Source: a virus (lineage: Duplodnaviria > Caudoviricetes). Taken from it: a DNA stretch of 60,838 nt. Shown here in pieces: positions 22-58,212 of this stretch (its first letter is position 1; every line of letters begins with the position of its first letter). The stretch lies in IMG/VR virus record IMGVR_UViG_3300048635_000011, positions 1-60,838 of that record; one strand, given 5' to 3'. A program made the position numbers and the translations under genes. The notes below the pieces were generated by a model. The model was not told the DNA's origin, did not search any database, and was given only the letters and a program-made list of their open reading frames with translations.

Positions 22-110
22 CTATATAAACTATCTGGTGAAGCTTAGAGGGAGCAACGGAGCGTAGCGAGTAGCGGACTGATAAAGCTGTAGACAGATA
101 GTTTATATAG
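22..110 (+). other. Structured ssDNA-like hairpin, copy 1 (resembles a primosome-assembly/ssi signal)
   Basis: Perfect 16-bp outer stem (22-37/95-110), AGCTT/AAGCT inner stem, GA-GC-A-AC-GGA / GA-GT-A-GC-GGA arms, apical GC-GTA-GC triloop; homologous copies at 48077-48165 (+) and 48202-48259 (-). Confidence 0.75.
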
Positions 111-232
111 ATATTAAATACAAAATTATACCTCCACACTACCTATTATTTCTTGGTTCAAACACTACTGTATAATATATATAAGAGAGAATTTCTAATT
201 TTCCTTATACTACAATCACTTACGAGAAATGA

Positions 233-296
233 TGTATATAGATCCATATACATTTGTATATGAGCTGATATACATCTGTATATAGATCCATATACA
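233..296. repeat. Three tandem palindromic 20-bp units at 22-bp period (iteron/operator-like)
   Basis: TGTATAT-agatcc-ATATACA at 233 and 277, TGTATAT-gagctg-ATATACA at 255; directly upstream of the RepL-like ORF. Confidence 0.9.
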
Positions 297-318
297 TTTA
301 GGTATTATTGGGGAATTT

Positions 319-768
319 ATGACCACAATACAGAAGCAAATTATTCTTGAGCAACTGGATACTTCTACAGGTGAAATTGAAACTACAGCAGTAGAAACTC
401 ATACCTATACAAAAACCAAAACAAAGAAATATGCTTGGTTATTTATAGAAGAACTCCATAGGTTATGGTTGTTAAACGAAATGGAATTAAAACTATTTAC
501 TCACATGATAACCATAATGGATGGTACAACTAACACAGCGGCTTATACTGCTCCTGAAAAGAAGTTAGTAATACAATCCCTCACAGAGAAAGAACTCACT
601 CCTAGAAGCGCAGGAATGCGGTTTAGTCAGCTAGTTTCTGGACTCTGTAAAAAAGGAGTTATTACCAAGGTAACCACCTGCTCTTATTTACTTGATCCTG
701 ATTTAATATCTTATGGTTTTGATGGGTTTAAACAAATAGAGAAGAATAGAGCTATATTTAATCAATAA
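319..768 (+). CDS. RepL-like winged-helix DNA-binding/replication protein
   Basis: 149 aa; C-terminal 'LCKKGVITKV...YLLDPDLISYG' resembles the RepL-family wing motif (L..kgii.k...Y.lNP....G); adjacent to iteron-like repeats. Confidence 0.55.
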   Translation: MTTIQKQIILEQLDTSTGEIETTAVETHTYTKTKTKKYAWLFIEELHRLWLLNEMELKLFTHMITIMDGTTNTAAYTAPEKKLVIQSLTEKELTPRSAGMRFSQLVSGLCKKGVITKVTTCSYLLDPDLISYGFDGFKQIEKNRAIFNQ

Positions 769-769
769 G

Positions 770-791
770 TATATTAGAATATTCTAATATA
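770..791. repeat. Perfect 22-bp palindrome TATATTAGAATATTCTAATATA
   Basis: Immediately after the ORF 319-768 stop; near-identical copy at 47863-47881. Confidence 0.85.
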
Positions 792-812
792 GAACCGAAA
801 AAAAAAATAAGG

Positions 813-10815: not shown

Positions 10816-12756
10816 ATGGAGACTTTTATGAAGCGTGTAATTAATGGTAAGGATGCTCTTAATCTAGCTCCTATTAAGTATAAGTATGCTTATGAATTCT
10901 TTCTAAATACAGGTAAAAATTTCTGGATACCCCAAGAAATAGCCGTAGGGGAAGATATTAATTCATTTAAGTATGGTTTGAATGATGCTGAACGGCATGT
11001 ATTTACTCATGTGTTTGCTACGCTAAGTACTATGGATAAGTTAGCAGGTAATATTCTTAATGAATTGTCTACCAAAATTACCAGTCCAGAACACCAATTA
11101 GGGATAGCTGCACAGATTTACCAAGAAGCTTACCATAGTGATAGCTACTTATACTGCTTAACGCCTGATCATGAGGTTCTAACTGAACATGGTTGGAAAG
11201 TTATAGGAGATATAACTACTACTGATAAAGTACTTTGTTATGATCCTGACACTTCATCAAGTAGCTTTCATACACCATCAAAGGTACATAACTACCTATA
11301 CACAGGGGATTTAAATTACTTTGAGGGCAGATACTTTAAACAAGTGACTACGGATGATCATAGAATGCTTTGTATTGGTGCAAGAAGTAGGAAGAAAAAA
11401 GTAAAATTAGCTAAAGAGTTTCCAGTAAACTCTAAAGTAAACTTTACTTTATTAAACCAAGCCCCTTTACAGAGTGTAGGAGTAGGCTTAACAAACCACC
11501 AACGTCTACTAATAGCACTACAAGCAGATGGTACAGTATATTACAATAAATGGCACTTTACACTCTCAAAACAACGCAAAATTAAAAGGTTATTAACTTT
11601 GTGTGCATCACTAGGGTACACAGTTACTACTTCACCTACAACTAGACAAAACATTCCTAATCAAAAAAACTGCACTATATTTAGGGTAAGTGTCCCAAAA
11701 GGAGTGGTAGCTACGAAAAGCTTCTCAGACTGGGTAGAATATAATCAATCTACACAATACTACACTGATTTTATGGATGAACTACAGCACTGGGATTCTC
11801 ATATTAGGGTAGACGGAAGACCATCATTTGTGTATTGCTCTACAAATAGTACTAACGCTGATATAGCTTTAACTATAGGGGTACTGGCGGGTAAGAGAGT
11901 AAGTAGAAATGTTCAAATTGGTAAAGGTACACGTAAAGATTCTTATAGAATAACTTTCGTAAATGCTGACACTGCTAAAGGTACTGTAGTTAAAACTACC
12001 AAAAAGGTTTTTAAACAACAAGTACACTGTCTAACAGTACCCACTGGGTTTTTTGTGGTTAAGGCAGATAATAAAGTGTCAATAACAGGTAATTGCGCTA
12101 CTCATATTGGTTTGGATGAAGAATGGTTATGGAGTAGATGGGAACAAGTACCAGAAATAAAAGCTAAGATTGACTTCATGACAGATAGCTTAAAATCTCA
12201 AACCTTTCTAGGACAGTACTTTACTGTAGCAGCAGTGCTAGAGTCTGTATTCTTTATGACAGGTTTCAACCCTATATTTGCATTGGCTCGAAATAATAAA
12301 GTGAAACGTGTTACTGAGGTATTACAGTATATAGCAAGAGATGAAGACCTACACATTAAGTTTGGTATGGAAACCATTAAAAATATTATTAAAGAGGAAA
12401 ACTTAAAAAAAGACCTTATAACTAAACATTTTAGTAAAATTCTTAATGAAGCTTTACGTTTAGAATATGATTATATTAACTTCATTTATAGTGAAGGAAG
12501 TACTATGGGTTATAACCCTTTGGAACACATGCAGTATGCTTCCTTAAGAGCGCGTAATGCTATGCGTTACTGTGGACTATCAGAGAAACATTTAATACTT
12601 CCTGAAGCTCCAAAGTCCCCTACATGGATACATGAAATGCTTTTAAGTAAGAAAGAAAAAAATTTCTTTGAAGCTAAAGTAACAGAGTATCAATCAGGGG
12701 GGTTGGATTGGAGTAACCCAGACGTAGACCCTTGGACTTTAGAAATTAAAGGATAA
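10816..12756 (+). CDS. nrdB: Class I ribonucleotide reductase beta subunit containing an intein
   Basis: FWIPQEI, QEAYHSDSY (E..H...Y radical motif), LESVFFMTGF, IARDEDLH, NFFEAKVTEY. Confidence 0.92.
   Translation: METFMKRVINGKDALNLAPIKYKYAYEFFLNTGKNFWIPQEIAVGEDINSFKYGLNDAERHVFTHVFATLSTMDKLAGNILNELSTKITSPEHQLGIAAQIYQEAYHSDSYLYCLTPDHEVLTEHGWKVIGDITTTDKVLCYDPDTSSSSFHTPSKVHNYLYTGDLNYFEGRYFKQVTTDDHRMLCIGARSRKKKVKLAKEFPVNSKVNFTLLNQAPLQSVGVGLTNHQRLLIALQADGTVYYNKWHFTLSKQRKIKRLLTLCASLGYTVTTSPTTRQNIPNQKNCTIFRVSVPKGVVATKSFSDWVEYNQSTQYYTDFMDELQHWDSHIRVDGRPSFVYCSTNSTNADIALTIGVLAGKRVSRNVQIGKGTRKDSYRITFVNADTAKGTVVKTTKKVFKQQVHCLTVPTGFFVVKADNKVSITGNCATHIGLDEEWLWSRWEQVPEIKAKIDFMTDSLKSQTFLGQYFTVAAVLESVFFMTGFNPIFALARNNKVKRVTEVLQYIARDEDLHIKFGMETIKNIIKEENLKKDLITKHFSKILNEALRLEYDYINFIYSEGSTMGYNPLEHMQYASLRARNAMRYCGLSEKHLILPEAPKSPTWIHEMLLSKKEKNFFEAKVTEYQSGGLDWSNPDVDPWTLEIKG
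11155..12093 (+). mobile_element. Intein with LAGLIDADG-type endonuclease domain (313 aa)
   Basis: Starts CLTPDHEVLTEHGWK; block B VTTDDHRM; LQADG and WDSH endonuclease blocks; VHCLTVPTGFFVV; ends ITGN/C. Confidence 0.92.
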
Positions 12757-45723: not shown

Positions 45724-47136
<1,413 letters not shown>

Positions 47137-47139
47137 ATT

Positions 47140-47850
47140 TTATACCCATCCATTCATTTCTAATTTTACATTATCAAAATTCTCTCTATGAAGTAGTGAA
47201 TTTCTTTCTATACTTACACAAGCTGCTTCAAACTTAGCTAAGTACCTTTCTTTTTCTCCATTAACTGTATCACCACTTAAACCTACACTCAATCTTGAAC
47301 CAATATACATTAGTAAAGGCTCTAGTAGCATATCAGGTAACTCTAACTCTAAATCAGGTAAATTACTACTGTTAATATCTATTTTAGGGTGGGAAGCTCT
47401 GTAGGTAACATGAATAGTGTTACCTGTTATTGGGTAAGGGTGCTCTATGACATTATAGGTAGGAGTAAATACAGATAGAGCATTATCTCTATTATTTAAT
47501 GGTAATTCTACCCCTACCTCATTCTCAACTCTTTCTACTTTAAGTACATCCCCTATAAAAGGATACATAGTTGAATCTGATATGTACTTAATAGGTTCTG
47601 TACTACTTATATTACTTTGGGCATATTTAGCATCTAATTTATATAAGGATAAATTACTCTGCAAGTCTAAGGTTACGCTATTAACTTTAACAGGTAATCT
47701 TTTATATATAGCTACTAATGCTATATTTATGTGAGGTATAATTCTAAAGTAATCCTCTGTCTGTATAGAGGTGTTCCCCTCAAAACCACTATACTCTATT
47801 AAGGATAACTCCCCTGATATTAAGTGATCGAATATTTCTTGTAACTTCAT
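47140..47850 (-). CDS. N4 gp67-like head-tail adaptor
   Basis: MKLQEIF..L..GELS...IN.AL..IYKR...LELP..L...L..YI..R...GWV; true start 47850 after AGGAG RBS. Confidence 0.88.
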   Translation of the reverse strand: MKLQEIFDHLISGELSLIEYSGFEGNTSIQTEDYFRIIPHINIALVAIYKRLPVKVNSVTLDLQSNLSLYKLDAKYAQSNISSTEPIKYISDSTMYPFIGDVLKVERVENEVGVELPLNNRDNALSVFTPTYNVIEHPYPITGNTIHVTYRASHPKIDINSSNLPDLELELPDMLLEPLLMYIGSRLSVGLSGDTVNGEKERYLAKFEAACVSIERNSLLHRENFDNVKLEMNGWV

Positions 47851-47862
47851 TTTTTGTGCTCC

Positions 47863-48037
47863 TATATTAGAATATTCTAATTTACTTCTATATATCATTT
47901 GTATATAGATCCATATACGTTTGTATATGGATTCATATACGTTTGTATATAGATCCATATACATCTTTTCTCCTAAGTGTATGTAAAATATAGGAAAAAA
48001 ACTTTTTTCTCTTATATATATTATACAGGGTGTTTTT
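47863..48037 (-). repeat. Second, inverted copy of the origin-like cassette: palindrome + 3x22-bp units + AT-rich flank
   Basis: Units at 47900, 47922, 47944; reverse complement of 47964-48037 aligns with 160-232 (CTGTATAATATATATAAGAGA...CACTTA.GAGAAA.GATGTATAT); TATATTAGAATATTCTAAT at 47863. Confidence 0.9.
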
Positions 48038-48076
48038 CATGTATATTTTTCTTTTTTCTTTTCCTTCTTTTTAACC

Positions 48077-48165
48077 AATAAATTAATAGTAGGTGAAGCT
48101 TCGATTGAGTAGCGGAGTGTAACGAGCAACGGAATGAGAAAGCTGTAGACTACTATTAATTTATT
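48077..48165 (+). other. Structured ssDNA-like hairpin, copy 2
   Basis: 16-bp outer stem of different sequence from copy 1; same GGTGAAGCT...AAGCTGTAGA core; GT-GTA-AC triloop. Confidence 0.75.
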
Positions 48166-48201
48166 ATTCTTTTTCTCTTTTTTTCTTTATGTGCGCTTTC
48201 G

Positions 48202-48259
48202 GCTACAGTATTCTCCCTGCGATGCTCACTACGTTCCGCTTCTCAGTCGATACTTCACC
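48202..48259 (-). other. Structured ssDNA-like hairpin, copy 3
   Basis: Minus strand GGTGAAGTAT CGACT GAGAAGCGGA ACGTAGT GAGCATCGCA GGGAGA ATACTGTAG, with the same spacing and compensatory changes. Confidence 0.7.
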
Positions 48260-48318
48260 TCTCGCTTGTAATGGTATTGTTTTATGTGTTCTCTTCTTAT
48301 ATTGGCTCTCTGTTCGAT

Positions 48319-49908
48319 TTAGGCTATATATGAATCTATGTCTTCGTAATCATCTGTTTCTATAGTATCCCATAATTCAGGCGATTCTTTCTTTGGTTTG
48401 ATAGGTAGGTTTGCAGAAGGTTTCCAAGGTGTCATATTAGCTAACATGCTAATGGTATCTATAAAGTCATCATGCTTGCTTTTAAAGGCACTCTTAGTTG
48501 CTAACTTAAGCTCATTAAGTGCTTCTTGTATCTCCTTACTTTCTTTCCGTTCTTCTGGAAAATAAATCCTATTCATTTTGAACCAAGGTACTACCACATT
48601 AAACCTTGTTATCTTATCTGTTACAGGTCTTATACCTACTGTAGTACCATCTTTATCTTTTGCTAAGGGGAAGAACACATTTCTACTCATCATCTCATTT
48701 TGAATCCAAGATACAAATCCTTTTTGTTGTCCTGATATTTCGATACCTACTGATTGTGGATTGTACTCTTGGGCTAGTCTAAAGAGGTCTTCTATGTTCT
48801 TATCCATCAGTTGCTTCTCTACTATACCGTCTACCCAAAACCAATCACCATTATTATTATATGCCCATACACTTATAACAGAGTAATCAGCACTGTTCTT
48901 ACTACTAGTAGCAAAGTCAGTAGTAATGTAGAAGTTAAAGCTACCTCTATTCTTTAATAAGGAAGCTCTCCTATACCAACTAATATCACAATCTTGTATT
49001 AACCTATCTTCATCACTCATAATCCGTAACATAAGTTCTTGGTTAAAGGTATCAATCTTACCTGAGTTCCTAGCCTTCTCATATTGGCTCAATACATAGT
49101 CATAATCAAATCTGTCTTCCCATGCTCCTTTAAAGTCTTCCCTCTTAACAGGGAACTTCTCACATACAGGGAACACATTAGCGTACCAAGCACCTGATTC
49201 AATAGCCTTGTACAAAGGATCACGGGCATTAAACGGAGTACCAGACCATATAGTTTTTCTTCTGGTAGGATGTAATGCGTAGTCAACAGCTTTATAAATG
49301 GTGTCTTCTATACTTGCTATTACTGTTGGACTCCTAGCATCATCATCTGATATTAAGTCATCAAGTACAGCAAGTACTGGTCTTTGCCCTTGCTCTTTTG
49401 CACCTCTGACTCCAGTCTTAGCCCCATAGCCCCTAACTATAAACTTATGTCCTGATAAATTAGTAAACTCATAACGTACATCAGTAAACCTAGTATGTGG
49501 TATATAATGCTGTAAGAACTCAGAGTTTTGCCACCTATATTCTAAGTTCTTCCTCATATTCTTAACACCATTCTCTATACTATCTGAAACGTATAAAGCA
49601 AAGCTAATATCCCCAAACTGAGGTAAACTCCCATACACAGCTACATACAAGAAGAGATACTCTCCCAAAACTGTAGTTTTTGCAAGACCTCTACTACACA
49701 TATTACAGATACCTTTCTTACTACCTGCTATCTGGTCTAACATCTTATAGTGTACTACTGGAGTCTTATGTTCCTCTCCAGTACCACCATTAACTAATTT
49801 AATAAAACTAACAAACTCTAAAGCAAAATCACTTGGTATGTAATTTGGATTATCCTCATAATCTACATCATTTAAGTAGTCTTCTACTTGTTTTTTAATC
49901 ATTCCCAT
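48319..49908 (-). CDS. terL: Terminase large subunit (N4 gp68-like)
   Basis: RGLAKTT Walker A, VLDDL Walker B, GTPFN, TTDFATS, HDDFIDTISML. Confidence 0.97.
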   Translation of the reverse strand: MGMIKKQVEDYLNDVDYEDNPNYIPSDFALEFVSFIKLVNGGTGEEHKTPVVHYKMLDQIAGSKKGICNMCSRGLAKTTVLGEYLFLYVAVYGSLPQFGDISFALYVSDSIENGVKNMRKNLEYRWQNSEFLQHYIPHTRFTDVRYEFTNLSGHKFIVRGYGAKTGVRGAKEQGQRPVLAVLDDLISDDDARSPTVIASIEDTIYKAVDYALHPTRRKTIWSGTPFNARDPLYKAIESGAWYANVFPVCEKFPVKREDFKGAWEDRFDYDYVLSQYEKARNSGKIDTFNQELMLRIMSDEDRLIQDCDISWYRRASLLKNRGSFNFYITTDFATSSKNSADYSVISVWAYNNNGDWFWVDGIVEKQLMDKNIEDLFRLAQEYNPQSVGIEISGQQKGFVSWIQNEMMSRNVFFPLAKDKDGTTVGIRPVTDKITRFNVVVPWFKMNRIYFPEERKESKEIQEALNELKLATKSAFKSKHDDFIDTISMLANMTPWKPSANLPIKPKKESPELWDTIETDDYEDIDSYIA

Positions 49909-52238: not shown

Positions 52239-52960
52239 TAATCCCCCTTATGCTCTATTATTATTGGTTTATGCGCTATTTCCTTAGCAGTAGAAGCACC
52301 TGCTTCTAATAGTTTCCTTTGTTGAGTTACTAACTCATAGGTTGCTTTTCTTAAATCTGCAATACTCTGATCTTCTTTAATTGATACATCTAGCTCCACC
52401 TTAGTAGCTTCAGGTACTTTTAAGTGAGTTAGTAGACTACTTGCACTATCACTTCTTACTTTAGGGCTAATTGTTGTATCACTCATTAAGGAAGCCAATG
52501 TATTAATTGCCCGTTGGTGTACATCAGCGTTTAGTATATGACTAGGCACTAAAGTCTGCTCCACTATAAGATTTACTAACTTATTCTTATTATATGCAGC
52601 AACGAAAGCACTAATCTTCTTCTCAGTAGCACCTTCCTTCAGTAAACGGCTATACCTATCAGGGAATGTTTTAGTATAAGCTACTACATTAGTATCCCCT
52701 AACATTTTGTGACTACAATACCTTACAGCAGATAAATAATCTTGCATTTTATACTTACCTGTAGCTAGGACACTAGTGAAAGATAGTAAGTTCTCACGAT
52801 ACACTTCTCTTAAAGCAGTATCACCTTGAACCAAATTATTAATATTGGTTACCATTTCATCATTAATAGTAGCTCCTAATTGTTTATTAGGCATTACTCT
52901 TTTAAATTGTTCTATTGATATTAAATCCATTATATTTCCTCTATTGTAGTTGCGAATCAT
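52238..52960 (-). CDS. Terminase small subunit (N4 gp69-like); start probably at MDLIS
   Basis: RENL.SF..VL..GKYK..DY..AV.Y.SHK..G.TN..AY..TFPDRY; S.KVR.D.A.SLLTHLK. Confidence 0.88.
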   Translation of the reverse strand: MIRNYNRGNIMDLISIEQFKRVMPNKQLGATINDEMVTNINNLVQGDTALREVYRENLLSFTSVLATGKYKMQDYLSAVRYCSHKMLGDTNVVAYTKTFPDRYSRLLKEGATEKKISAFVAAYNKNKLVNLIVEQTLVPSHILNADVHQRAINTLASLMSDTTISPKVRSDSASSLLTHLKVPEATKVELDVSIKEDQSIADLRKATYELVTQQRKLLEAGASTAKEIAHKPIIIEHKGD

Positions 52961-53430
52961 TCTTATTTAGAAAGTTGCACAGTATAATTTTTAAGATAGT
53001 ATGTAGAAAGATTATGTATTTCAAATTATTTTGACATAAGTTAGTAATCAGGTTTTTCAAAATTTTAAATTATTTTGACATAGTGTAGTACTACCTCACC
53101 TTACTATACCTAATAGGTATACCCCCCTATAGATACCCCTATAGATAGATATTAATAGTTCCTACTAGCTTATACTTATACCTCACCTATACTATACATA
53201 GCTTATACATATACCATACATCTAGTACATAACTAGCTCATAACTAGTACATAACTTATAGTGTAATACACAGTAGTTATCTCAATATAACTTATAGGTT
53301 CTACTCCTACCTAAACATACCCTCAATACTATACCATACCACACATCCTACCTATTGGTTACCTATACTATACATTATACTCCTCACATATCCCATAGTG
53401 GGTATACTACACTACCTACTAGTAGATACA
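52961..53430. other. Non-coding strand-switch region, probable genome terminus/packaging region
   Basis: Between divergent late and early blocks; direct repeat AAATTATTTTGACATA (53023, 53067); G-poor low-complexity tract ~53084-53430. Confidence 0.55.
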
Positions 53431-53487
53431 TCAGCAAAACATATATTTAAAAACATAGCAATCATGCTACACATAAGGAGAAGTACT

Positions 53488-53739: not shown

Positions 53740-53844
53740 GACCGCTAACATCACCTATTCAAACGTAGGTGATAGAGTAAACTTTCGTAAAACATTTTTT
53801 TAAAAAACATAGCAATAATGCTAATTAAACAAGAGGAAAATACC

Positions 53845-54492: not shown

Positions 54493-54553
54493 AAACTTTC
54501 GTAAAACACCTATTTAGAAACATAGCAATCCTGCTAACTAACTGGAACATATC

Positions 54554-55559: not shown

Positions 55560-55653
55560 CCTAACTAATAACCTAACCTTAACTGGTTGGGTTTAAGTTT
55601 TTTAAAACACTATTTTAGAAGCATAGCAATATTGCTAACTTAGGAGAAATACC

Positions 55654-58122: not shown

Positions 58123-58212
58123 TCTAATACCCTAGCCTTCGTGGTTAGGGTTTAACTTTCGCAAAACACTTTTTTAGATAGGTAGTAATTACGCTATAAC
58201 TGGAGAGAGCCA

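Follow-up and report, generated by a model that had tools for sequence, protein, structure and literature searches.

The stretch analyzed here (the window) is a linear virus record of 60,838 bases, about 82% complete, from an N4-like phage; it encodes a virion RNA polymerase (vRNAP) of 4156 aa (phrog_2206, 1019.7 bits), a major head protein, a portal, an N4-type primase and an exonuclease, and its terminase DNA resembles that of N4-like phages. Three hairpins with a common 27-nucleotide (nt) core lie at two places in the window: site A, at 1-330 of the + strand, and site B, at 47840-48330 with the - strand as its reading strand. These hairpins are instances of a widespread, strand-specific conserved folded motif, and we suggest, with a probability of roughly 45%, that the motif is a signal on single-stranded DNA (ssDNA) at which synthesis of the complementary strand starts, and that it acts divergently at site B. 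The features of the two sites are as follows.

22..110, + strand: copy 1 (W1); 16-bp outer stem 22-37/95-110, core 52-78, apical GCGTAGC, 49.3 bits; its inner parts, on the same strand, are a GGTGA/GTAGA internal loop and then an AGCTT/AAGCT stem
168..188, + strand: promoter-like 21-mer with an extended -10-like TGnTATAAT and an exact twin at site B (2 exact matches, 0.06 expected)
233..297, + strand: three palindromic repeats of the CATATACnnnnGTATATG type (family D5) at site A, candidate iterons or operators
319..768, + strand: RepL-like winged-helix gene, 149 aa, directly behind site A
767..804, + strand: second common palindrome, TATTAGAATATTCTAATA type, behind the RepL-like gene (pair I2, 87% complementary)
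47140..47853, - strand: N4 gp67-like virion structural protein, behind site B (phrog_2125, 3.7e-57)
47850-47887: twin of the TATTAGAATATTCTAATA-type palindrome, just ahead of the gp67-like start codon
47900..47964, - strand: site B counterparts of the CATATACnnnnGTATATG-type repeats (89% identity to site A)
48008..48028, - strand: the same 21-mer at site B
48077..48165, + strand: copy 2 (W2); 16-bp outer stem 48077-48092/48150-48165, core 48107-48133, 45.0 bits
48193..48265, - strand: copy 3 (W3); core 48218-48244, weak outer pairing, 48.5 bits
48319..49908, - strand: terminase large subunit, in front of site B (phrog_38, 1.5e-96)

The core, GAGNANCGNA-NNGTANN-GAGNANCGNA, occurs with 0 mismatches at 52-78 (+), 48107-48133 (+) and 48218-48244 (-); 0.00 such matches are expected by chance, three were reached in 0 of 100 shuffles, and the core pattern read backwards has 0 matches within the record. 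A covariance model run with its filters off finds these three and no others in the window, the next best hit scoring 7.5 bits (E 8.6). The three gap-free copies quoted in a preliminary description of this DNA are thus borne out; the interval given there, 48077-48259, holds copies 2 and 3, whereas copy 1 sits at 22-110.

Under RNA folding parameters all three copies have the same architecture, which from base to tip consists of an outer stem, a loop of GGTGA over GTAGA, a 5-bp stem, a stem of 2-3 bp and the core. The 5-bp stem covaries (AGCTT/AAGCT versus AGTAT/ATACT), and so does the 2-3 bp stem beside the core. Each core arm has the letters G1 A2 G3 N4 A5 N6 C7 G8 N9 A10, and the arms pair as G3-C7', N4-N6', A5.A5', N6-N4' and C7-G3', which gives a helix GNANC/GNANC with a central A.A; below this helix 5'-GA faces 5'-GNA, and above it 5'-GNA faces 5'-GA, followed by a 2-bp stem and the GTA loop. 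The variable arm pairs are CA/TG, TG/CA and AG/CT in the three copies, and the apical pairs GC/GC, GT/AC and AC/GT enclose the GTA loop in the heptamers GCGTAGC, GTGTAAC and ACGTAGT. The d(GCGNAGC) heptamer of DNA mini-hairpins is exact in copy 1, and copies 2 and 3 keep its shape by means of compensatory closing pairs. Read in the GNANC/GNANC register, what had been described as swapped arm dinucleotides becomes a set of ordinary compensatory Watson-Crick pairs, and the compensatory changes claimed for the paired segments hold at the apical pairs, the arm pairs and the AGCTT/AAGCT stem. The claim of different 16-bp outer stems in all copies fails at copy 3: only copies 1 and 2 have such stems, and the outer pairing of copy 3 consists of two interrupted 3-bp stems. 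The outer stems account for most of what makes the z-scores of copies 1 and 2 good, and these stems fold just as well when the complementary strand is taken; the whole fold of copy 3 is no better than shuffles (RNA z -1.40, DNA z +0.58). Three readings of the fold as a known RNA motif were dropped by eye: a hammerhead, since CUGAUA is found in copy 1 only; a kink-turn, the loop sizes being unsuitable; and a sarcin-ricin motif for GGAAC/GUACC, where the covariation fits the plain Watson-Crick register.

The motif extends far beyond this phage. A strict 57-nt pattern with the GGTGAAG/CTGTAG frame has 0 matches in viral contigs, and blastn with the element or with the version in phage G006 gave no match in phage records. 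With the loop letter relaxed, 31 viral loci were recovered, 11 of which keep all four tested pairs, and a 20-letter pattern found 15 loci in bacterial genomes (five in Streptomyces, three in actinobacterial metagenome-assembled genomes (MAGs), an Enterococcus genome with three tandem copies, four contigs of a Turicibacter MAG, Anaerolineales and Tepidisphaerales). A third pattern added 38 viral loci, with both arm pairs kept in 15, one in 6 and none in 17; those failing the two-pair test were left out of use. By BLAST the motif is present on 8 Streptomyces plasmids, PromA plasmids such as pTer331 and pIPO2, an Acidovorax plasmid and Dulem virus 149. Of ten loci matched by one pattern, seven were treated as chance: L007-L012 (one common GAA-rich stretch with unpaired arms) and L006 (pairing fails).

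Aligning 26 distinct instances gave 87.3% paired cells compared to 71.9% in shuffles (a value reached in 0 of 500), and slid registers fall to 26-47% paired. Eight of the 10 pairs vary on both sides, the central A.A is invariant among at least 10 different GNANC/GNANC combinations, and the C(GNA)G-type loops occur with all four letters at N (A 12, C 7, T 5, G 2). Given that viral rows were selected by, among other things, the two variable arm pairs, and that the arms were fixed by the pattern in the bacterial rows, the unbiased evidence for covariation lies in the closing stem and the apical pairs. A model built from this alignment (R1) has 43 matches at E<=0.001 across 83 sources, and the motif-bearing contigs range from 37% to 68% G+C. 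Covariation is kept over the 26 instances.

No Rfam family covers the motif: Rfam 15 finds 3 tRNAs only in the window, 2 tRNAs only in the 15 bacterial loci and nothing in 4 viral loci, and at site B a search at E<=10 gives weak miRNA-type noise only (RAGATH-35 scores 15.9 bits, its threshold being 38.9). Literature searches by sequence string or topic, the coverage of which leaves out supplements, found the motif named in no paper. Two kinds of sequence were noted beside the pattern searches. Tandem arrays with a 17-nt period and the unit GAGNANCGNANNGNANN occur in L004 (9255-9300), L005 (811-900), L097/L105/L110 and L098 (4180-4250); they have the fixed letters of a core arm plus loop, and most cannot make the arm helix, L098 excepted by way of G.T pairs. 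In L013 (1000-1700, -) and L117 (900-1060) the motif is embedded in long stretches that lack genes and are crowded with further small hairpins, often with GAA loops and repeated GGCGGCCTTAGCCGCC units; the stretch in L013 has no Rfam match.

Within the window, sites A and B are homologous over ~300 bp and have the same module order, i.e. hairpin (copy 1 or copy 3), promoter-like 21-mer, three palindromic repeats and first gene. The conserved GGTGAAG...CTGTAG frame of copy 3 lies at 48260-48204, and its onset is ~55 nt past the terminase stop codon. Copy 2 points the opposite way to copy 3 and runs antisense to the late genes on either side; the stretch that holds it has no counterpart at site A. 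Scans of both sites for sigma-70 promoters and terminators gave nothing above shuffles, and GC and AT skew along the window tracks nothing but the orientation of the genes and does not turn at site B. The metatranscriptome run X2 (contigs only) has error-free pieces of late genes and leaves 47813-48413 without cover, from which no conclusion was drawn.

The 149-aa protein behind site A has the features of RepL in the ESM Atlas (0.96; 23 of 30 matches in the RepL set), and its predicted structure reaches template-modeling scores of 0.57-0.63 to RepL clusters. It has no match in Pfam or PHROG, including none to PF05732 at E<=1; a word-index search returned only the protein itself, a PDB sequence search was uninformative, and BLASTP against the HTH_36-like protein of L115 gave no alignment.

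The settings of the motif in other genomes are informative about its strand. In Dulem virus 149 (Microviridae) it fills a 70-nt intergenic gap on the gene-sense strand (30.0 bits, E 6e-7). In the inovirus-like L101 it lies on the gene-sense strand between secretin and G2P/RepSA-type replication genes, within ~850 nt, and in L170, a 6.9-kb inovirus-like provirus with Zot-type, Rep_trans and DUF2523 genes, it is again on the gene strand. In both Microviridae and Inoviridae the gene-sense strand is the packaged strand. A search for the Microviridae capsid family had no match in the 3 small contigs searched. The motif is found 400 nt ahead of a Rep_trans gene in L121, and a gene for a single-stranded DNA-binding protein adjoins it in L130. 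A further motif-bearing viral contig (L150, 4,911 bp) encodes a protein that matches the S-domain viral coat PF00729, a family typical of RNA viruses and chimeric ssDNA viruses.

At all four assessable loci in Streptomyces chromosomes the motif lies ~230 nt before a winged-helix gene of 165-168 aa on the same strand, and on plasmid pM92 it likewise precedes a same-strand winged-helix (helix-turn-helix, HTH) gene; with pM92 included, the spacing is ~230-400 nt and the gene length 161-168 aa. The chromosomal genes, at 3 of 4 loci tested, have weak matches to RepL, RP-C and HTH_36, and the DNA between motif and gene, as judged by eye, is repeat-rich and richer in A+T. In pTer331 the motif lies ~115 nt ahead of the apparent ardC start, on the ardC template strand, and GGTGACA repeats form a cluster near repA at a distance of ~270 nt; we do not call this cluster an origin because in the related plasmid pSFA231 the oriV-like region is placed elsewhere, 5.1 kb downstream of repA (PMC4290620). 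In a 12.4-kb Acidovorax plasmid the motif is located between mobC and repA.

Altogether, three strand relations are seen: (i) the motif shares its strand with rep-like or viral genes for copy 1, the four Streptomyces loci, pM92, L121, L101, L170 and L135, (ii) it is opposite to the repA strand in two theta-type plasmids, and (iii) it is antisense to all neighboring genes for copy 2, the T7-like phages G005-G007 and pTer331. Copies 1 and 3 point away from their own repeats, as do, by eye, the copies in Streptomyces L118 and in pTer331. Phages G005 and G006 (L116, L117) are complete at 43-44 kb, encode a T7-type RNA polymerase and have, beside the motif at the genome end, a second and shorter RNA_pol-like open reading frame (ORF).

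Combining these observations, we suggest that the motif acts as a signal on exposed ssDNA because of its placement on viral strands, its occurrence beside four unrelated kinds of replication gene, its fixed orientation relative to those genes, its C(GNA)G loops and the antisense cases. The presence of one core with four types of replication protein and at 37-68% G+C points to a reader other than each element's own Rep. The preliminary description had proposed a DNA structure for priming, with one signal per strand at site B; the comparative context fits this proposal, and an RNA structure retains a share of the probability. Judging by the polarity of copies 2 and 3, the two would direct synthesis apart.

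In the model that we propose, each step of which we infer from context, the RepL-like protein would bind the palindromic repeats and the region would be opened or displaced. The purine-rich strand would then fold into a compact, melting-resistant hairpin, and this hairpin would start complementary-strand synthesis much as a single-strand origin (sso) or a single-strand initiation (ssi) signal does, with host RNA polymerase, host primase or the phage primase as candidate readers. Copy 2 would direct synthesis leftwards and copy 3 rightwards; given this polarity, site B would fire divergently. Copy 1 would direct synthesis leftwards, away from its own repeats.

Several observations count against a role as a start signal on ssDNA. 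First, RNA and ssDNA structure are indistinguishable from sequence alone (see also PMC5737381), and the ssDNA-phage cases fit RNA as well because the sense strand is the mRNA strand, too. Among the 26 instances, 7 G.T cells compared to 4 A.C cells give no clear strand signal, and one Streptomyces plasmid copy has a non-GNA apical loop. Second, model R1 with filters off finds no relative among known signals: on pUB110, pIJ101 and pT181 the best hit has 7.7 bits (E 2.3), and on phiX174, G4 and M13 the best has 8.5 bits (E 1.4), so that the likeness to the phiX174 signal suggested earlier is not upheld. Third, the naming of the 149-aa neighbor as RepL-like derives entirely from language-model features and a predicted structure, and in Streptomyces and pTer331 it was by eye that repeats were classed as iteron-like. 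Fourth, copies in Firmicutes chromosomes are dispersed or in tandem and lie next to housekeeping genes, which an origin-specific signal does not predict; the model has 28 matches in the Turicibacter MAG and 25 in the Enterococcus genome, compared to 1 in a Streptomyces genome. Among 18 Enterococcus regions fetched, a looser pattern matches 16; in 13 of these the motif is on the same strand as an adjacent gene (7 between two same-strand genes, 3 behind one and 3 before one, as determined with a crude ORF caller), and in 3 it is antisense to both. This sharing of strands resembles an RNA element in 3' untranslated regions.

If the motif is a start signal, it might define a new, cross-phylum class of sso, i.e. 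a compact hairpin zippered by G.A pairs and read by a universally conserved host enzyme such as RNA polymerase or primase; we regard this extension as doubtful. Similarly tentative is the list of users that such a class could have, namely ssDNA phages, elements that are conjugative or replicate by rolling circle, tailed-phage modules of the RepL type and even chromosomes.

The alternative that survives best, although we consider it unlikely, is a structured RNA element, located in untranslated regions of mRNAs or acting as a small RNA, that protects or processes transcript ends or binds a conserved protein. Copies 1 and 3, L115, the Streptomyces loci, L121 and the ssDNA-phage copies are all on the sense strand of their neighbors, copy 3 begins shortly behind the terminase gene, and most Enterococcus copies share a strand with an adjacent gene. 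Moreover, conserved purine-rich internal loops are common in functional RNAs, and RNA energy parameters fold all window copies alike. The strand bias in Firmicutes does not single out RNA because co-orientation would also mean location on the lagging-strand template. Three points argue against RNA. Copy 2, G005-G007 and pTer331 have the motif antisense to every neighbor, a placement hard to reconcile with an mRNA element acting in cis; the motif is separated from the gene by a promoter-like box or by repeats both in the window and in Streptomyces; and C(GNA)G triloops are of a DNA type rather than the tetraloops usual in RNA. In addition, Rfam has no match even at E up to 10.

Alternatively, the motif could be a selfish repeat, similar to repetitive extragenic palindromic (REP) elements or miniature inverted-repeat transposable elements, that spreads as folded ssDNA and landed in this phage with no function there. 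The large copy numbers in Turicibacter and Enterococcus, some of them in tandem arrays of 51-53 nt, are what such a repeat would leave behind, and the Turicibacter copies share a flank of ~130 nt, with two contigs ending 54 nt past a copy. The sporadic occurrence in N4-like phages (0 of 11 genomes, 2 of 81 loci) and the position of copy 2 as an insertion relative to site A are also in agreement with this idea. However, the window copies have unrelated outer stems and compensatory differences, which suggests that they are old and that their fold is under selection rather than that they are recent products of transposition. Likewise, the core is kept across phyla, unlike the species-specific REPs, and the placement by rep genes and on viral strands would need an extra explanation. 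A Y1 transposase (PF01797) has one match in each of the two Firmicutes genomes, on contigs C89 and C57, both of which are motif-free, and 6 of 14 control genomes also match. We rate a selfish repeat as less likely than an RNA element; it is chiefly the Firmicutes chromosomal copies that keep these two explanations in play.

Clearly less probable again is a cruciform or hairpin site on double-stranded DNA that is bound by the RepL-like protein or another regulator and controls the promoter of the module. Such a site would account for the fixed place of the hairpin at the head of the duplicated hairpin-promoter-palindrome module; the A+T-rich 16-bp outer stems of copies 1 and 2 fold on both strands and would ease extrusion, and, with GAGNANCGNA present in both core arms, the shape is pseudo-twofold. 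Yet the same core occurs with unrelated replication proteins, with no RepL-like gene seen nearby in some genomes, the G.T pairs of the motif strand would become A.C mismatches on the other cruciform arm, and copy 3 is without a long stem.

Finally, the proposal that the copies are early promoters for the injected vRNAP, as in coliphage N4, is very improbable and already close to refuted: it is unsupported because copies 1 and 3 are on the wrong strand, the motif is missing from 11 of 11 related N4-like genomes, and it occurs in phages without a vRNAP. Its attraction lay in the 4156-aa vRNAP of this phage and in the GCGTAGC of copy 1, which is similar to the G+C-rich heptamer of N4 with its 3-nt loop and sheared 5'G:A3' pair; N4 promoters are hairpins of 5-7 bp on the template strand that resist melting and have a loop centered at -11 (PMC4496689). 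The apical heptamers of the motif do have a 3-nt loop of this type, in which the sheared G:A pair is presumed from the sequence, but their Watson-Crick stem has 2 bp rather than 5-7. Since copies 1 and 3 share the sense strand with the genes that follow them, N4-type transcription would run the wrong way; copy 2 lies within the late operon, 256 nt away from the next start codon, and site B as a whole is within this late structural operon. The 11 related genomes, 8 of which are at least 90% complete, have no match at E<=0.1. Two of 81 loci match the model (80 around terminase genes 65-72% identical to that of the window, plus L014); both belong to one lineage, with the match 3 kb upstream of the terminase gene. 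A search for related loci with the gp67-like protein found one distant locus, which is motif-free. None of the 5 other phage records with the motif, 3 of which are complete, has a vRNAP match, and 3 of the 5 have a T7-type RNA polymerase, and the motif is also in bacteria and plasmids.

Better candidates for early promoters are provided by a 34-nt hairpin repeat with six copies on the + strand (53436-53469, 53790-53823, 54503-54536, 55604-55637, 58163-58196 and 59395-59428). It ends in a hairpin of the type TAGCA-4 nt-TGCTA and lies directly before small + strand genes at 53.4-59.4 kb, 10-20 nt ahead of the ribosome-binding site in the copies at 53436 and 53790. Next to it is a gene-free stretch of 480 bp (52960-53440) that separates late genes running leftward from small genes running rightward; it contains two copies of AAATTATTTTGACATA and is probably a genome-end region or a host-promoter region. 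The repeats beside this stretch look like the real early region.

Three further observations concern the rest of the window. A trio of tRNAs (Leu-AAG, Gly-ACC and Tyr-GTA) lies at 20030-20448 (+). A 646-aa ORF at 10816-12756 (+) matches the small subunit of ribonucleotide reductase at both ends and PhoH-like and thymidylate synthase proteins in the middle, suggesting a possible insertion or fusion. The tail-fiber gene at 45724-47136 (-) has periodic repeats of 9 and 18 nt that encode collagen-like Gly-X-Y, and contigs of the sequencing runs show many length variants and joints in these repeats.

To our knowledge, few model plasmids and ssDNA phages have a known minus-strand origin, and such origins are regarded as diverse and host-restricted. 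Here, one 27-nt core is common to microviruses, inoviruses, Streptomyces elements, broad-host-range plasmids, an N4-like phage and T7-like phages. If the motif is a start signal on ssDNA, it would be a portable and easily recognized marker of where a single strand is converted to duplex, it would make origins in uncultured phages, this N4-like one among them, directly accessible to study, and it would offer a compact, testable model for a sheared-G.A DNA fold. If it acts as RNA instead, it would be a widespread structured RNA motif missing from Rfam.

Among known elements, the motif shares with REPs the imperfect hairpins and, in two Firmicutes genomes, the intergenic copies that number in the dozens and are dispersed or in tandem. 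GTAG is a hallmark of REPs, and the CTGTAG of the window frame has a conserved GTAG. Unlike REPs, the core is cross-phylum, the Y1 transposase matches lie on contigs apart from the copies, and the phage has three copies only, which differ by compensatory changes. As for the loops, C(GNA)G loops are of the DNA mini-hairpin type (PMC13037366; PMC4496689), and by sequence those of the motif would resemble the mini-hairpin d(GCGNAGC).

The likeness to ssi signals consists of hairpins on one strand that are intergenic on the viral strand of ssDNA phages, as the record of G4 annotates an origin between genes F and G. In contrast to the signals of phiX174, G4 and M13, conserved G.A loops and a central A.A are features of the motif only. 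The ssiA and ssiB of RSF1010 are paired signals on opposite strands and in this respect resemble site B, and the position of the pTer331 copy on the template strand before ardC recalls the Frpo-type signals in the leading region of the F plasmid.

The closest comparison is with the sso of rolling-circle plasmids. The sso work in one orientation on the displaced strand, are portable across Rep types and lie at variable distance from rep; RNA polymerase primes them, and in the pSN2 family ssoA is found together with small RepL initiators of the HTH type (PMC5703833). Several differences set the motif apart. The core of ~27-43 nt is much shorter than ssoA (~160 nt), the recombination site B (RSB) is absent from the window (0 matches at up to 3 mismatches), and, unlike the classical sso, which are host-restricted or confined to Firmicutes, the motif is cross-phylum and present in double-stranded DNA phages as well. 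The TAGCGA of copy 1 resembles TAGCGT, the hexamer of conserved sequence 6 (CS-6; PMC4598088), but it is found in copy 1 only; neither copies 2 and 3 nor the wider family conserve it. One fixed orientation is seen in the settings with rep or viral genes and not in the two theta-type plasmids. In other respects the motif would parallel ssoA, ssoU, ssoT and ssoW as well as ssoL, in that a folded motif on one strand is found with differing Rep types at variable distance from rep, and the RepL-like gene that accompanies copy 1 would parallel the pairing of ssoA with RepL in the pSN2 family. If its kind is judged rightly from sequence and setting, the motif would take its place among the single-strand start signals as a new variant.

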